Assembly: GCA_951406725.2 (NCBI GenBank)
Contig: OX597814.1
Location: 121,768,001-121,832,000 of the forward strand
DNA from: Octopus vulgaris
Lineage: Eukaryota
Direction of reading: 5' to 3'
DNA: 64,000 nt
Shown: piece by piece, positions 12,690-55,800 of the stretch
Numbering within the stretch: the stretch's first letter is position 1
Layout of the letters: every line of letters starts with the position of its first letter
Position numbers and translations under genes: made by a program
The notes under the pieces: model-generated
Seen by the model: only the letters and a program-made list of their open reading frames with translations
The model's database searches: none
What the model was told of the DNA's origin: nothing

Positions 12690-13650
12690 GCCTGGCTGGT
12701 CGTAATGTCATACTTTCTTGTTGACGTATTTTCTTGTCTTTCCATTTCTCCTCTCTCTCTATGTCACTCTTTGTATTTCCTCTTTTATGGAACGTCGCCA
12801 ATCTCCACGGTTGCTGGCAACTGCTTCCCAGTTGGTAATATTGATGTTGCAGGCATTCATGTCCCTTTTGCAAACATCCTTGTATCGTAAGAACTGTTTC
12901 CCCCAGATCTAGTGCCCCTAGCAAGCTCTCCGTAGAGTATGTCCTTGGGGATTCTGCCATCTTCCATACGGCTAACATGTCCAAGCCATCTCATACGCCT
13001 TTGTGTGAGGAGTGCAAACATGCTTGGTATTCCTGCTTGCTTGAGGACATCTTTGTTGGGGACATGATTCTGCCATTTGATGCGAAGTATTTTCCGGAGG
13101 CAGCGCAGGTGAAAGATATTTAGGCGATGCTCTTGGCGTGAGTATGGCGTCCAAGTCTCACTTCCATACAGTAGAGTGCTAAGTACACATGCCTAGTAAA
13201 TCTTCATTTTTGTGGTCTTCGTCAGCTTATTGTTGTCCCATGCCCGTTTGGATATTTGGGCCATCACAGCAGCTGCCTTGCCAATGTGTATATTGAGCTC
13301 AGCATCAAGGGATAGGGTGTAGGTGAAGGTAGAGCTAAGATAGGTAAACGTCTCCCCCTCCTGTAGTCTGTGGTCTCCAATATGTATGTTTGGGATGTCC
13401 GATGTAGCCTGACCCATGATGTTGGTCTTCTTGAGGCTGATAACTAAGCCAAAGTCGCTACATGCTTGCTCAAAACAGTTGATGAGCCTTTGTAGGGCTT
13501 CTTCTGTGTGTGATACCAGAGCGGCATCATTAGCAAATAGCACCTCCTTGATCAGGACGCTTCTGATTTTGGTCTTGACATGCAGACGCGAGAGATTGAA
13601 CAGTTTCCCGTCACTTCTACTGTGCAGAAACACTCTATCATCTGATATCT
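12690..13650 (-). mobile_element. RTE-clade (BovB-like) LINE reverse-transcriptase fragment, pseudogenised
   Basis: RSDGKLFNLSRLHVKTK...LFANDAAL (FADD mutated to FAND)...FGLVISLKKT...FTYLSS...KMKIY*, then frameshifted LRWLGHV-type 3' region. Confidence 0.88.
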
Positions 13651-14691
13651 GAAACTAGACTATATATTATTCATATAGAAATACACTAAGAGGCTTCCAA
13701 ATAGGAAAGCGTTGCGCTAGAAAGAGCAGTAGAAATCTCAAGACCACAAAAAAGGATAAATTCACGAAATGAATGAAAATTAAAAACGTTTACCATCTCA
13801 ACTATTTCCCAGACCGCGGTTTCTAACTATTTCCAGCAAAAAATATTCGCTAAAGGCCAGTTTTCTTCAGTGGGACAGCCTTTAGATTTCAGACATACAG
13901 ACCGCCAGAAATACACTAAGAGGCTTCCAAATCGGAAAGCGTTGTGCTAGAAAGAGCAATTATGTATTTCTATATGAATAATATATAGTCTAATGACTAA
14001 TTCGTTTTTTGTGCTAGGCCTCTGATAATAATAATTTATCATTACCCTATTTTATTATGTTTAAATATTGTTTGATAAATTTGTTCGAAATTTTTACCGG
14101 CATCCTCTCTATCGCCGGGTATAATCTGCGTCTGCGCAGTGGTTTGAAAAGTTAGGATTTACAAACCGTTAGTTCTACATGTGGATCCACCGGTGTTTGT
14201 AATCGATGGTAACATGTGCGATGAATTTGCGATTATCTTCTATTTTACGGAGAAATTGGAAGCCCCGAATGTAAGCCACCACTTTATGCATAATTCAATA
14301 TTTATAGTTCTCTATTTCTAACTGAAATTCTGTCCTCAATAATTATAGATATCTATTTCAAAATGTAATTCTTGTTCTTCTCGTTCAGCTTATAACTATA
14401 ACACGCATTTTTGTCTAGCTTTTTTTCTCCAGCGTTCACCACTCCACCTCGTTAGGGTTAAACAGCCCTTACCGAATCTTTTCACTGTTTTTGTTAGCAG
14501 CTTTGACGTTCCACGTATCTCAAATTTTATTTAATTTGCTTTGGGAGAGCAATTACTTTGACGAAGACGCATCTCGTTGCAATGCTCGCAATGCGGAGTA
14601 GGTAAAACTGCCAACAATTGAGAAAGGTTTGTTTTTTTTATACTGCCTTCGCGCTATAGTTGTCTATATATAATTGAAATTCTCTTTCTTT

Positions 14692-14767: not shown

Positions 14768-14790
14768 CTTTGTTACAGTGATACCAATGC

Positions 14791-15498
14791 CATAGCGGGC
14801 TCTGGTCGCCATAGCGTCGACTGTGGGCCGGTGGCTATGTACAGTCGCCTCGATATCGCCCAGAGCGAGCTCTGGTTGCCATAGCGTCGACTGTGGGCCG
14901 GTGGCTATGTACAGTCGCCTCGATATCGCCCAGAGCGAGCTCTGGTTGCCATAGCGTCGACTGTGGGCCGGTGGCTGTGTACAGTCACATCGATGTCACC
15001 CAGAGCGAGCTCTGGTCGCCATAGCGTCGACTGTGGGCCGGTGGCTGTGTACAGTCGCCTCGATGTCGCCTAGAGCGAGCTCTGGTCGCCATAGCGTCGA
15101 CTGTGGGCCGGTGGCTGTGTACAGTCGCCTCGATGTCGCCTAGAGCGAGCTCTGGTCGCCATAGCGTCGACTGTGGGCCGGTGGCTGTGTACAGTCGCCT
15201 CGATGTCGCCCAGAGCGAGCTCTGGTCGACATAGCGTCAACTGTGGGCCGATGGCTGTGTACAGTCGCCTCGATGTTGCCTAGAGCGAGCTCTGGTCGCC
15301 ATAGCGTCGACTGTGGGCCGGTGGATGTGTACAGTCGCCTCGATGTCGCCCAGAGCGAGCTCTGGTTGCCATAGCGTCGACTGTGGGCCGATGGCTGTGT
15401 ACAGTCGCCTCGATGTCGCCTAGAGCGAGCTCTGGTCGCCATAGCGTCGACTGTGGACCGGTGGCTGTGTACAGTCGCCTCGATGCCGCCCAGAGCGA
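14791..15498. repeat. GC-rich 70-bp minisatellite, 10 full copies plus a partial
   Basis: Unit cagagcgagctctggtcgccatagcgtcgactgtgggccggtggctgtgtacagtcgcctcgatgtcgcc starts at 14791, 14861, ... 15421, 15491. Confidence 0.97.
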
Positions 15499-37773: not shown

Positions 37774-38011
37774 GTATATGTGTGTGTATATGTTTGTGTG
37801 CCTGCGTGTGCCCCCCCCCCCCTCAACATCGCTTGACAACCGATGCTGGTGTGTTTACGTCCCCGTAACTTAACGGTTCGGCAAAAGAGACCGATAGAAT
37901 AAGTACTAAGCTTACAAAGAATAAGTCCTGGGGTCGATTTGCTCGACCAAAGGCGGTGCTCCAGCATGGCCACAGTCAAATGACGGAAACAAGAAAAAGA
38001 GTAAAAGAGTA
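37590..38011 (+). mobile_element. SINE family A abutting the GluA splice donor
   Basis: Near-full copy whose aaagagtaaaagagta tail ends immediately before acttac (donor GTAAGT on the minus strand). Confidence 0.9.
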
Positions 38012-38017
38012 ACTTAC

Positions 38018-38266
38018 CATCATCTGAATCGAAAATGTAGAAAATTCGCCTCCACCGATAGAAGTTGATCAGCTCTGTGATGGCTGGCATATAGGACGGG
38101 CTCATATGTATCTCAAATGGATAACTTGGCAGTTGATGTCTTGTAGCTACATTCAGAACGAATACGGGTAGATGCAAAGCATTACTATATGCTTGAACAA
38201 CATGATGGGAAATTGGGTTGTTTAGTATAAAAAGTGCGAAAATACCCATAGCCGACTGAGAGCAAA
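38018..38266 (-). CDS. GluA: AMPA-type glutamate receptor, ATD exon (1st in window), 249 nt, phase 1/1
   Basis: ctttccag|TT TGC...GAT GAT G|gtaagt. CSQSAMGIFALF...YSNALHLPVF...PFEIHMSPSYMPAITELINFYRWRRIFYIFDSDD(G) matches GluA CSQFSRGVYAIFG...LHVSF...PFVIQMRP..LIEYYQWDKFAYLYDSDRG. Confidence 0.95.
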
Positions 38267-38419
38267 CTGGAAAGAGAATTAAAATAGAGAAATTAGATTA
38301 ATACTGGGAAATAATTTATATTATGAATGTATACATCAATAAACATTTCAAATTTCTCTGCAATATAAAAATGTGCTGTAATGTAAAGATAAATACATAT
38401 ATACATACATATATATATA

Positions 38420-42819: not shown

Positions 42820-42821
<2 letters not shown>

Positions 42822-42965
42822 TTTATTTAAAAGCAGCAGAAATATAACAAACTCTGAGTAACAGCTTTTGTTATATTACTGCTGCCTTTAAATAAAGCAT
42901 ATTACTCTACCTCTTGTAATTGAGTACTCTTTTTTCCACCTTGTTTCACATTTATGTGCTTACTC

Positions 42966-43029
<64 letters not shown>

Positions 43030-43172
43030 TTTATTTAAAAGCAGCAGATATCTAACAAACTCTGAGTAACAGCTTTTGTTATATTTCTGCTGCTTTTAAA
43101 TAAAGCATATTACTCTACCTCTAGTAATTGAGTACTCTTTTTCCACCTTCTTTCACATTTATGTGCTTACTC

Positions 43173-43177
<5 letters not shown>
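42820..43177. mobile_element. two tandem deletion derivatives of the 46673-46908 element in (TA)n
   Basis: 42820-42969 and 43028-43177 are near-identical and reverse-complement homologous to 46673-46908, lacking the palindrome centre. Confidence 0.85.
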
Positions 43178-43240
<63 letters not shown>

Positions 43241-43882: not shown

Positions 43883-46042
43883 CATAAATATATTTTCATA
43901 CACACACACACACACACACATCTATATATATATATATATATATCAAACAATTTCCCAGTTGTTTTGTGATTAATGTTGTTCCTAATTAGCGCCAGACGAA
44001 GACAAGTGCATAAACAACAAGCAGGTGTATTAGTTTGACGCTCGGGGAAATGAAAGTCTTTTATGTTTCGGGCCTACGCTCTTCAACACAAAAGAGTAAG
44101 ATATGTGTGTATGTGTCTGTATCCATGCATACATACATATGTACGTCTGTGTGTATGTATGTGTATGTCTGTGTTTTATGTCTGTGTATGTCAGTCTCTG
44201 TGTCTCTGCGCATCGGTGTCTATGTCTAGTATAGTATAAAATAATTTGAAGACTGAAGGGCTAAAGAAAGGGTAGAGTAATAAATTCATTTCATCTTTGA
44301 AGAACTTTGTATAAATTTGTTCTTATAAAAATATTGATATAAGACAGTGATTTTCTTCTATGCTTAAAACTCAGATCGGCTTTCACAGATTTTGTGAAAG
44401 TCTCTCCAACACCGTCTAACATCAAAAAGTCTACCGTTGATTAGAACTTCTTATCTTCTTTGGAGAGTTATTAAAAACGAATTCCTTCACATCTCTCTTT
44501 AAGTTTGAAACTTAAGTTGATGTTTGATAAAAGCTGTCTAAAGTGTGATTGAGATTCCATATAACGATATTTTATAATGCTGGCCTATTATTATGAATGT
44601 ATAATGTGTCAGTTCCTTTACTTGCTATTCTGAACAAAGAAATATCAAAGAAATCACATGATTTGATTGTTTAAAAGATGAATTGTTCTCTAAGACATTC
44701 TCTCATGAAAACTCAACAATTCACCTTTATGACAATATGAATATATATATATTTTATTAACGTATATTGCATTGGCTCGACCATTCCTTCAGAACTCAGT
44801 GTCATATTTGTAATATAATACATAAATCGTAAAAGTCTAACTAGAATGTTCCAGTTCTGCGAGGAAGTCTTTATTAATATTTATTGCTGCAAACGACTTG
44901 CAATACAAAGGTCGTTATTATGAGGAAAGTTTTACAATAGTCGCATGGCAATAAGAATATCGATAGTTTAGAAGCGATCGATTGAAAAGTCAAAATAGTT
45001 TTATAAGATTACAGAATAGAAATTAACGGTAACTACGATATGATTTACGAAATGTCATTAAGAGGATTATGTGTTAGATTTTACAGCATGTTTTGAAGAT
45101 TTCTAGTGCACAACAAACTGCTTGAAAACGGATTAAAGTAAAGATCGGAAAGAAGGATCAAATGGGGGCGGGTGGTTGAAAGAGATGTGAAATAATGTTG
45201 AGGGTCTTGCAACGTTGAATTCAACGATGTGAGATCCAATGAGTAAGCGTGTAGGCAGACTCTTGGTCTTGTAGAAATTGCAGTATAATCCCCTTCAAAT
45301 CAAAATTTAGCGACGTATGAATGGAAACGGCGCATCAGATAATGTACTCATAATTTTCTTCTAAGTGAAATAGAATATAGTCAAGGTTAGGACACCGTGA
45401 AACGTGGATATGCTCAAGACAACAAAACAACAGTAAATTAACGAAGAACTGAGCAAAAGTACTGATTTCTAGAATTATGTAAAATCTGCAAGAATGCACT
45501 AAAAGAGATGTTACCTGCTGTTTGGAATAAAGTTAAATTAATTTGATTAATCAGTGGGTAATATAATTAATTTTCAACAGTGTCTTGTTGAAAAGTTGGT
45601 GGAAACACTACAAAATGTCAGTAAGTTAAATAAGATGTAATTGAATATTTAACAGACGCAATGCAGTATTATTTTCTAAATGAAAAAAAAATAATAATAA
45701 TAATAATGAAGTCAACTCAACTCAAGCTATCGCAGTGCAGAGGAATCGAGTAAAGAAATCACAGAAATATTTATAAAATGTTATTATGTTTTTTTCTCCT
45801 TTTATTCAACATATCGAAGTTTTAATGTACTCAGTCGCTGATAGTGGAAATAGCACACACACACACACACACGTATGCACATATATGTACTTACCTATAA
45901 ACTAACACATACATACGGTTATGAATAAATACATGTATTTATAAACAGACGCACTTACATACTTATATATATATATATATATACAAACATTATAAATAGA
46001 AAGATAGATAGATAGATAGACAGATACATACATACATACATA

Positions 46043-46576: not shown

Positions 46577-46666
<90 letters not shown>

Positions 46667-46672
46667 CATATA

Positions 46673-46908
46673 TACCGGAGTAAACACATAAATGTGAAAC
46701 AAGTTAGAAAAAAGATTACTCAAATACCAGGGGTAGAGTAATATGGTTTATTTAAAAGCAGCAGAAATTCAACAAAACCTGTTACTCGGAGTTTCACGTT
46801 CCCGTTCGTCGGACTGTTTTGCGCGCTTTTTAACAAAACTGTCCGACGAACGGGAACGTGAAACTCCGAGTAACAGGTTTTGTTGAATTTTTGCTGCTTT
46901 TAAATAAA
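46673..46908. mobile_element. (TA)n-embedded palindromic element with variant hammerheads on both strands
   Basis: Arms 46747-46820 / 46835-46908. Each arm reads CCGACGA-acgggaacgt-GAAACTCCGAGTA-acag on its own strand. Confidence 0.8.
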
Positions 46909-46963
<55 letters not shown>

Positions 46964-51134: not shown

Positions 51135-51750
51135 GGCGGCGAGCTGGCGGAAACGTTAGTACGCCGGGCGAAATGCGTAGCCGTATTGCGTCTACCGTTA
51201 CGTTTTGAGTTCTGAGTTCAAATTCCGCCGAGGTCAACTTTGCCTTTCATCCTTTCGGGGTCGATTAATTAAGAACCAGTTACGCACTGGGGTCAATATA
51301 ATCGACTGAATCCCTTTGTCTGTCCTTGTTTGTCCTCTCTGTGTTTAGCCCCTTGTGGGTAGTAAAGAAATTGGTATTTCATCTGCCGCTACGTTCTGAG
51401 TTCAAATTCCGCCGAGGTCGACTTTGCATTTCATCTTTTCGGGGTCGATAAATTAAGTACCGGTTACGCACTGAGGTCGATGTAATCTACTTAATCCGTT
51501 TGTCTGTCCTTGTTTGTCCCCTCTATGTTTAGCCCCTTGTACGCAATAAAGAAATAAGAAACGTTAGCACGCCGGGCGAAATGCTTAGCGGTATTTCGTC
51601 TGTTGTTACGTTCTGAGTTCAAATTCTGCCGAAGTCGACTTTGCCTTTTGGGGTCGATAAATTAAGTACTAGTTACATACTGGGGTCGATCTAAACGACT
51701 GGCCCCCTCCCCCAAAATTTCATGCCTTGTGCCTAGAGTAGAAAAGAATA
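51135..51750 (+). mobile_element. SINE family B tandem trimer, followed by an antisense copy at 51752-51965
   Basis: Three consecutive acgttctgagttcaaattccgccgaggtcgactttgcc units. Confidence 0.9.
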
Positions 51751-55616: not shown

Positions 55617-55620
<4 letters not shown>

Positions 55621-55800
55621 TAATCCAAACAAGAAAACACAAAAAAACACAACAACGCGAAGACGTGGAACAAATATAGTATTATTGGACGCTCCGGAAA
55701 GAAGGGAAGAAGGAGGGTTTAACGTTTCGAGCGGAGCTCTTCGTCGGAAACATAGGAGAAGGAAAGATCCCGAGAAGGGAAGACAGAGGAAATACATGCA
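55617..55800 (-). mobile_element. Penelope-type short element next to (TA)n with CCGACGA-core hammerhead motif
   Basis: Minus strand gttt-CCGACGA-a gagc tcc gctc-GAAACGTT-aaac at 55717-55751. Confidence 0.65.

Follow-up and report, generated by a model that had tools for sequence, protein, structure and literature searches.

The window, by which we mean the whole 64,000-nt stretch of Octopus vulgaris DNA that was analysed, contains a near-perfect hairpin at about 46746-46909; with its tail, the whole element occupies 46675-46909 and is set in (TA)n. In folding against shuffled sequence the hairpin reached -136 kcal/mol (z = -20.5; 0 of 200 shuffles equally stable), and its two arms are mismatched at 2 of 71 positions. 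A preliminary description of this DNA had correctly placed (TA)n on both sides, and the palindrome that it reported was recovered, except that 46675-46745 lies outside it as a tail on one arm. The element and related features, assigned to a Penelope-like retrotransposon (PLE), are as follows:

46580-46674, no strand: (TA)n target, left (repeat annotation)
46675-46745, minus: PLE tail of 71 nt, on one arm only and outside the palindrome (comparison with copies and intact elements)
46746-46821, minus: tail-bearing arm, the 3' pLTR end with a hammerhead; C3 at 46812, predicted cut 46783/46782
46822-46827, no strand: junction filler of 5-6 nt between the arms; other copies do not have this filler
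46828-46909, plus: tail-less inverted arm with a hammerhead; C3 at 46843, U4C, GUA at 46870-46872
46863-46871, plus: stem III, self-complementary (ACUC-N-GAGU), through which two hammerheads are predicted to pair
46910-46961, no strand: (TA)n target, right (repeat annotation)
42820-42972, plus: shorter stub of the same PLE family in (TA)n, turning near stem III, catalytic core absent
43028-43179, plus: second core-less stub of the same PLE family, adjoining the first (sequence comparison)
55617-55790, minus: (TA)n-flanked copy of a second family, a textbook minimal hammerhead; C3 at 55747

The minus strand of the window is the sense strand of the element, and the plus-strand hammerhead belongs to the inverted arm. 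In intact elements the 71-nt tail has the hammerhead region on one side and the ORF start on the other. The tail-bearing arm is 5'-truncated 9 nt upstream of C3; compared over 151 nt, it shares 88.7% identity with the pLTR that a young intact family carries. The tail-less plus-strand arm begins 15 nt upstream of C3 and stops at AATAAAG.

Elsewhere in the window, an exon-like frame at about 37983-38297 (minus) resembles AMPA-type glutamate receptors in their N-terminal domain (Pfam ANF_receptor, E 4.5e-7; GluA2, E 1.5e-8). As the element lies about 8.4 kb upstream of this frame on the same strand, it may sit in an intron, where it could form a long double-stranded pre-mRNA hairpin, a possible editing substrate. 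Other repeats included a GC-rich tandem array at 14790-15498 (70 bp, 10 copies, 94% matches), a LINE-type reverse transcriptase fragment at 13193-13654 (minus; Pfam RVT_1, E 2.4e-5) and a common SINE-like repeat in a 184-bp tandem duplicate at 51209-51555. A hammerhead-like relic of another repeat family was present at 44030-44095 (minus), with a changed core (read as A6 to U); a similar motif was seen in locus L193.

The plus-strand core CCGACGA occupies 46843-46849 and is followed by a 3-bp stem II (acg/GGAA/cgt), by GAAA at 46860-46863 and then by ACUCCGAGU; the cleavage triplet is GUA at 46870-46872. The same core, stems (including stem I as drawn earlier) and triplet were found as in the type I hammerhead with a C4 core that had been described at plus 46832-46884, with GUA ending at 46872. 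The type I features C3, G5, A6, G8, A9, G12, A13, A14, A15.1, U16.1 and H17 were present together with three helices; U at position 4 was absent, C4 standing in its place. The minus-strand copy, described earlier as a mirror hammerhead with one stem I mismatch, carries the same motif with C3 at 46812, and its mismatch was confirmed at 46815. Truncation of the arm has removed the outer 5' strand of its stem I, and the mismatch is no family trait: among the 30 closest copies, the window alone has it on this arm.

The hammerhead fold of a single monomer was not its minimum-energy fold, with a probability of 3e-4 on the plus and 1e-6 on the minus strand. Within the full hairpin the probability was 4e-57 and 3e-59 for the two strands, which bears out the earlier statement that the hairpin competes with both ribozyme folds. 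On either strand the complement is transcribed before the ribozyme, so both folds are predicted to be blocked in the window copy, and the models make hammerhead cleavage by this copy unlikely. For the parent RNA, in which cleavage by the C4 hammerhead is uncertain, pairing of two molecules was considered. The stem III palindrome was calculated at -7.8 kcal/mol as a duplex between two copies vs. +2.1 kcal/mol as a monomer hairpin, and this predicted dimer pairing fits the dimer type known for PLE hammerheads. The centre base of stem III is C, A or T depending on the subfamily, and the 10.1-11.1 pair is A-U, A-G, A-A or A-C; because position 11.1 varies in this way (T, G, A, C), the third stem II pair is not kept. 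An Rfam scan of 44-50 kb returned no hammerhead family among 30 matches with E up to 1, the matches being hairpin-driven, miRNA-like and sub-threshold only. This agrees with the earlier expectation that standard motif searches would miss the non-canonical core, as does the use of CUGANGA descriptors in PMC8557442 and PMC3088659.

The motif is abundant. A 24-mer around the core had 2072 exact matches in the 2.8-Gb genome and its reversed control had 0, and with the tetraloop base and position 11.1 freed, a genome-wide core search of the kind proposed in the preliminary description gave 4038 matches with C4 vs. 4275 with U4.

The parent element was traced through the sequence upstream of single copies, which led into endonuclease- and RT-like frames. 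Locus L157 has an ORF end, 3' UTR, CCGACGA hammerhead and tail all on one strand, and in both L157 and L159, which belong to the old subfamily, EN or RT sequence lies upstream of the CCGACGA hammerhead on the same strand. Loci L163 and L164 show a tail-less inverted arm ahead of a decayed ORF. A protein search revealed a young sister family with many open 727-aa frames and 77-78% identity over a 222-aa RT piece. All eight of its fetched regions (L187-L194) have a pLTR that matches the arm of the window, at 89-90% identity over 148 nt where the tail is present, together with partial tandems and inverted arms. The hammerhead of this family has the canonical CTGATGA (CUGAUGA) core, but its stem II has a mismatched A-A pair at its base. 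Continuity of longer copies with RT/endonuclease sequence, and the match to the pLTR of the young family with its 727-aa ORF, supply the connection to an autonomous Penelope-like element that had been sought.

The 727-aa protein carries RWK at 53, DKT (in place of DKG) at 129, and CxCX5C, CxxC and CxH at 578, 683 and 711; the last three motifs also occur in old-subfamily loci L159 and L163, and the decayed old-subfamily copy L164 reads GWK for RWK. Pfam gave no direct match on this protein. Many of its 1760 homologues match PF26215, the full-length ones carry PF26215 and one also PF01541, and a weak similarity to another PLE protein was found (E 1e-6). Insertion in (TA)n and a hammerhead near the 3' end were found in the window copies and in the young intact family alike. 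These motifs define the Hydra clade, whose targets are (TA)n (PMC8557442), and the assignment to this clade rests on the motifs and the homologues at the level of sequence. The repeat unit, about 3.35 kb, is above the usual <3 kb. Neptune and Naiad assignments were dropped, the Hydra motifs being decisive. The identity of the element as a Hydra-clade PLE stub is well supported.

A second young PLE family (L037 and others) was also encountered, with 781-aa open frames and GIY-YIG above the cut-off. Its protein is ~22% identical to the Hydra-type protein, and L037 had no core match to the hammerhead pattern. A genome search with Pfam GIY-YIG returned mostly this 781-aa family, and the element of the window occurred in 1 of 30 loci, as an unrelated insert.

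The arrangement of the arms was examined in a sample drawn without regard to the core, namely the first 90 of 7408 matches to the tail motif, which after removal of one duplicate represented 89 insertions. A tailed arm was called in 79 of them (no call at 10 of the 90 sites) and an opposite arm in 50, and 49 of these 50 opposite arms were tail-less. Both arms bore the core in 24 of the 89 insertions; many of the others keep it on one arm or none. Facing pairs of cores numbered 7 among the first 100 of the 24-mer matches (spaced 43-77 bp, most matches being single) and 30 among the first 100 U4 matches (29 bp to 5.4 kb, which is also the overall range), and the turn points vary. The insertion marks of EN+ PLEs were all present: an inverted 5'-truncated copy, partial tandems and a tail at one end only. 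Inverted truncated copies and a one-sided tail are reported as general for such elements (PMC8557442; PMC3846280). The palindrome very probably consists of head-to-head, 5'-truncated pLTR ends of a Hydra-clade PLE in (TA)n, its two hammerheads being copies of a single inherited motif, which the hairpin is predicted to block in both strands. Judged from sequence comparison, hammerheads of both polarities appear as a by-product of inverted, 5'-truncated insertion.

A different origin, in a non-autonomous retrozyme- or MITE-like family for which the palindrome is the unit of spread and both polarities self-cleave as in Avsunviroidae, was weighed against these data. The 30 closest copies are 91-100% identical and agree in layout over all 236 nt, the turn being similar in many of them, and retrozymes have been proposed to derive from PLE pLTRs (10.64898/2026.07.22.740005). 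However, those 30 copies had been selected by similarity to the query and are not alike in their junctions, the sequence is continuous with a PLE ORF, and the continuous series of spacings contradicts a fixed unit. Two core searches, each considered over its first 100 listed matches, showed no units of 150-450 bp in head-to-tail tandem; neighbours on the same strand and within 7 kb numbered 0 in the first 100 24-mer matches and 3, at 3.35 kb, in the first 100 U4 matches. A viroid-like role is further opposed by the two hammerheads being one sequence and by the complement being transcribed first, with the fold blocked on either strand. We regard such a family as very improbable. From the preliminary description, membership of a family stands, and the family is a high-copy one (2072 matches), while a separate non-coding retrozyme family is not supported, the arms being PLE pLTR; the likeness to the facing hammerheads of Avsunviroidae was not upheld, as a single sequence is duplicated, core spacing is as variable as given above and many insertions have one core or none.

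Arm 5' ends were positioned relative to C3 by local alignment to four natural copies, with an uncertainty of 2-3 nt. Of 129 ends, 37 fell at -17..-14, 2 at -18/-19 and 12 at positions upstream of these. Arms stopped at a rate per nt of 0.27 at -17..-14, 0.034 at -13..-1 and 0.007 at -60..-20, and the rate fell ~40-fold just beyond -17. At the cleavage site (+28..+32) it was 0.007 per nt (4 arms), and no peak at the cut site, as a footprint of cleavage, was seen among the 129 arms. This wall coincides with A-16 in old-subfamily arms and, following a 1-nt indel, with A-17 in those of the young subfamily, and the A is that of a conserved YYANWYY-like motif, which we take to resemble the initiator consensus. 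The arms of the window itself end at -15 and -9. Arms joined directly to TA also stop at -16/-17 (L208, L215), and CTAG microhomology in young subfamilies accounts for part of the -14 peak. At 244 sites the turn lies inside or just after the core; among 50 of these that were listed, 4 turned at the cut site and 19 at stem III.

The pile-up of arm ends upstream of the core, with none at the cleavage site, suggests that the RNA has a fixed start and that the template had not been cleaved. In the mechanism we propose, RNA of the element would start at the initiator-like A, 16-17 nt before the core, and the RT-endonuclease would nick both strands of the TA run. Copying would begin inside the RNA at two points, which lie 66 and 137 nt beyond C3, each cDNA extending towards the RNA 5' end, and the two cDNAs would be joined by microhomology or filler. 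The template RNA would be copied uncut, and the hammerhead of the parent RNA would work, if at all, as a weak dimer through its palindromic stem III; such a role could explain why U4C was tolerated through several amplification waves. We infer that most stubs were copied from uncut RNA starting at the wall A, which fits the internal pLTR promoter of Penelope (PMC2377424) and the in vitro reaction of a PLE protein, in which both target strands are extended, two internal RNA start sites bound the tail and hammerhead cleavage is not needed (PMC11167929). Against the RNA-start reading, short motifs such as this initiator-like one occur commonly in AT-rich DNA. Taken together, the RNA start and the two-arm mechanism are modestly favoured.

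Alternatively, the same parent could have produced the inverted arm by self-priming (fold-back), perhaps on an antisense template, with the peak of arm ends reflecting short palindromes or RT stalling. Self-priming has already been proposed for head-to-head PLE palindromes (PMC3846280), and turns do favour short palindromes, namely CTAG at -14 and stem III (the 19 of 50 listed core-internal turns). Against this, arms often end at unequal positions with filler between them (the window; L303), the TA-joined arms L208 and L215 end at -16/-17 as well, and the stopping rate falls ~40-fold just past -17. Moreover, fold-back of a single strand does not alone yield one tailed and one tail-less arm (49 of 50). 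We consider fold-back or stalling the less likely account, though worth keeping in view. In the literature searched, no report was found of arm ends marking an RNA start. Under the two-site copying of uncut RNA, the wall is a testable prediction for the PLE RNA start, and genomic copies support the in vitro result of an uncut template; the wall thereby bears on how PLE inverted repeats form and on what PLE hammerheads do.

The C4 core is not confined to decayed copies. The first 100 of the 2072 24-mer matches comprised 86 CCGACGA, 7 CTGACGA, 6 CCGATGA and 1 CTGATGA, C4 being present in 92 of 100, and this spread is attributed to CpG decay of a CCGACGA master; such decay also accounts for the stray U4 copies of the old family (of these 100 matches, 8 have U4 and 7 have U7). 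It does not account for the C4/U4 split in the young family, where 17 of 17 tailed arms read CTGATGA. U4C is the master state in older subfamilies and in one very young subfamily: mean pairwise distances within C4 subfamilies were 7.7% (n=6), 3.4% (n=7), 3.0% (n=5) and 1.1% (n=6). The C4 class of the window gave 3.2% (n=20), a figure biased low by selection, and the U4 family 1.3% (n=17). In the young family with ORFs the core has probably reverted to the canonical U4, an order drawn from unrooted distances. Surrounding regions of intact young copies carry U4 in 8 of 8 cases, and an intact ORF with a C4 core was not found in these eight regions; long copies of C4 young subfamilies reach ORF sequence within 1.5 kb in 4 of 30 cases. 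A second, unrelated minimal-hammerhead family, to which the copy at 55617-55790 belongs, also has CCGACGA, with 12,417 exact 24-mer matches (75 C4 and 25 U4 among the first 100 listed), and many of its copies begin at a fixed TGTGACC end; the search for an element from which this family derives found none.

The C4 hammerhead might be catalytically dead in all subfamilies, the region being kept only as promoter and protein-binding sequence. The original U4C variant was reportedly described by Ambros and Flores in 1998, in peach latent mosaic viroid. The U4C change is stated to lower in vitro activity considerably, yet viroid infectivity was kept in vivo (PMC3088659), so that this precedent speaks for a dead ribozyme in the first respect and against it in the second. 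Loss of activity is also suggested by the variable 10.1-11.1 pair, by the lack of an excess of arm ends at the cleavage site and by the helices of 15 diverse arms: 80% of cells were paired and 3 pairs had changed on both sides, but 207 of 500 shuffles scored as high, so that stem covariation, a check named in the preliminary description, was not significant. Conversely, C3, A6, G8, A9, G12, A13 and A14 were invariant in the same 15 arms, a partly circular result given that the arms were partly selected by core, and the free positions are those that a dimeric hammerhead leaves free (N7, the tetraloop N and the stem III centre). The old and young masters share 87% identity in the pLTR vs. 76% in the ORF, and the youngest ORF-bearing family has U4. 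A dead C4 hammerhead is a real possibility, though somewhat less likely than not.

The widest reading, that the mirror stubs are a fossil RNA map, made by uncut, two-site copying, and that the U4C ribozyme, the majority form in two unrelated families, is deliberately weak, is put forward tentatively. If it is true, C4-core hammerheads form a large animal class missed by CUGANGA searches. No hammerhead with a C4 core, from PLEs or from octopus, was reported in the literature searched, although Lunse et al., on PLE hammerhead variants, may cover such cases. Descriptors for animal hammerheads are best written to accept C as well as U at position 4. The many intact frames of the young family, together with the natural C4 and U4 versions of the ribozyme, offer a ready comparison.

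The element itself is ordinary, and mirrored hammerheads of this kind are already on record, including a case from the Hydra clade. Pairs of motifs, one on each strand, had been noted for PLE hammerheads (PMC4209133), and Penelope-13_HM has a hammerhead on both strands that comes from an inverted truncated copy (PMC8557442 supplement). The window family resembles the Hydra clade of Craig et al. (2021, PMC8557442) in RWK, DKT, the CxCX5C linker, CxxC, CxH and (TA)n targets, as well as in its 3' pLTR hammerhead, palindromic stem III and inverted 5'-truncated copy. The closest likeness is to Hydra-2_aMil, whose hammerhead has stem I ctgt/acag and stem III actc-N-gagt (same supplement), both identical in the window family. 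It differs from the clade in its stem II of 2-3 bp with a GNAA loop, in a tail of 71 nt vs. 30-40 and in being mostly C4; all Hydra hammerheads listed in PMC8557442 have U4, but these were found with a U4 descriptor. As its hammerhead is unlike the one given there for Hydra-1_Obim (also written Hydra-1_oBim), the two are distinct families.

With PLE hammerheads described earlier, the window family shares a palindromic stem III of low stability, a predicted activity as a dimer, truncated copies in the thousands and dual opposite-strand motifs, which in the earlier cases lie 100-700 bp apart; unlike those, it has neither the G10.1-C11.1 pair nor the extra base after A9. The viroid U4C hammerhead cited in Perreault et al. 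(2011, PMC3088659) has the same core change, there as a single viroid variant vs. the master state of several genomic subfamilies here. Animal non-LTR retrozymes (PMC7229834; 10.64898/2026.07.22.740005) are likewise type I, non-coding and PLE-related, but are described as head-to-tail tandems of 150-450 bp with circular RNA, whereas the window holds a head-to-head stub continuous with a PLE ORF. Finally, Avsunviroidae carry two distinct hammerheads, one per polarity, whereas the arms of the window are copies of one sequence, differing at only 2 of 71 positions.
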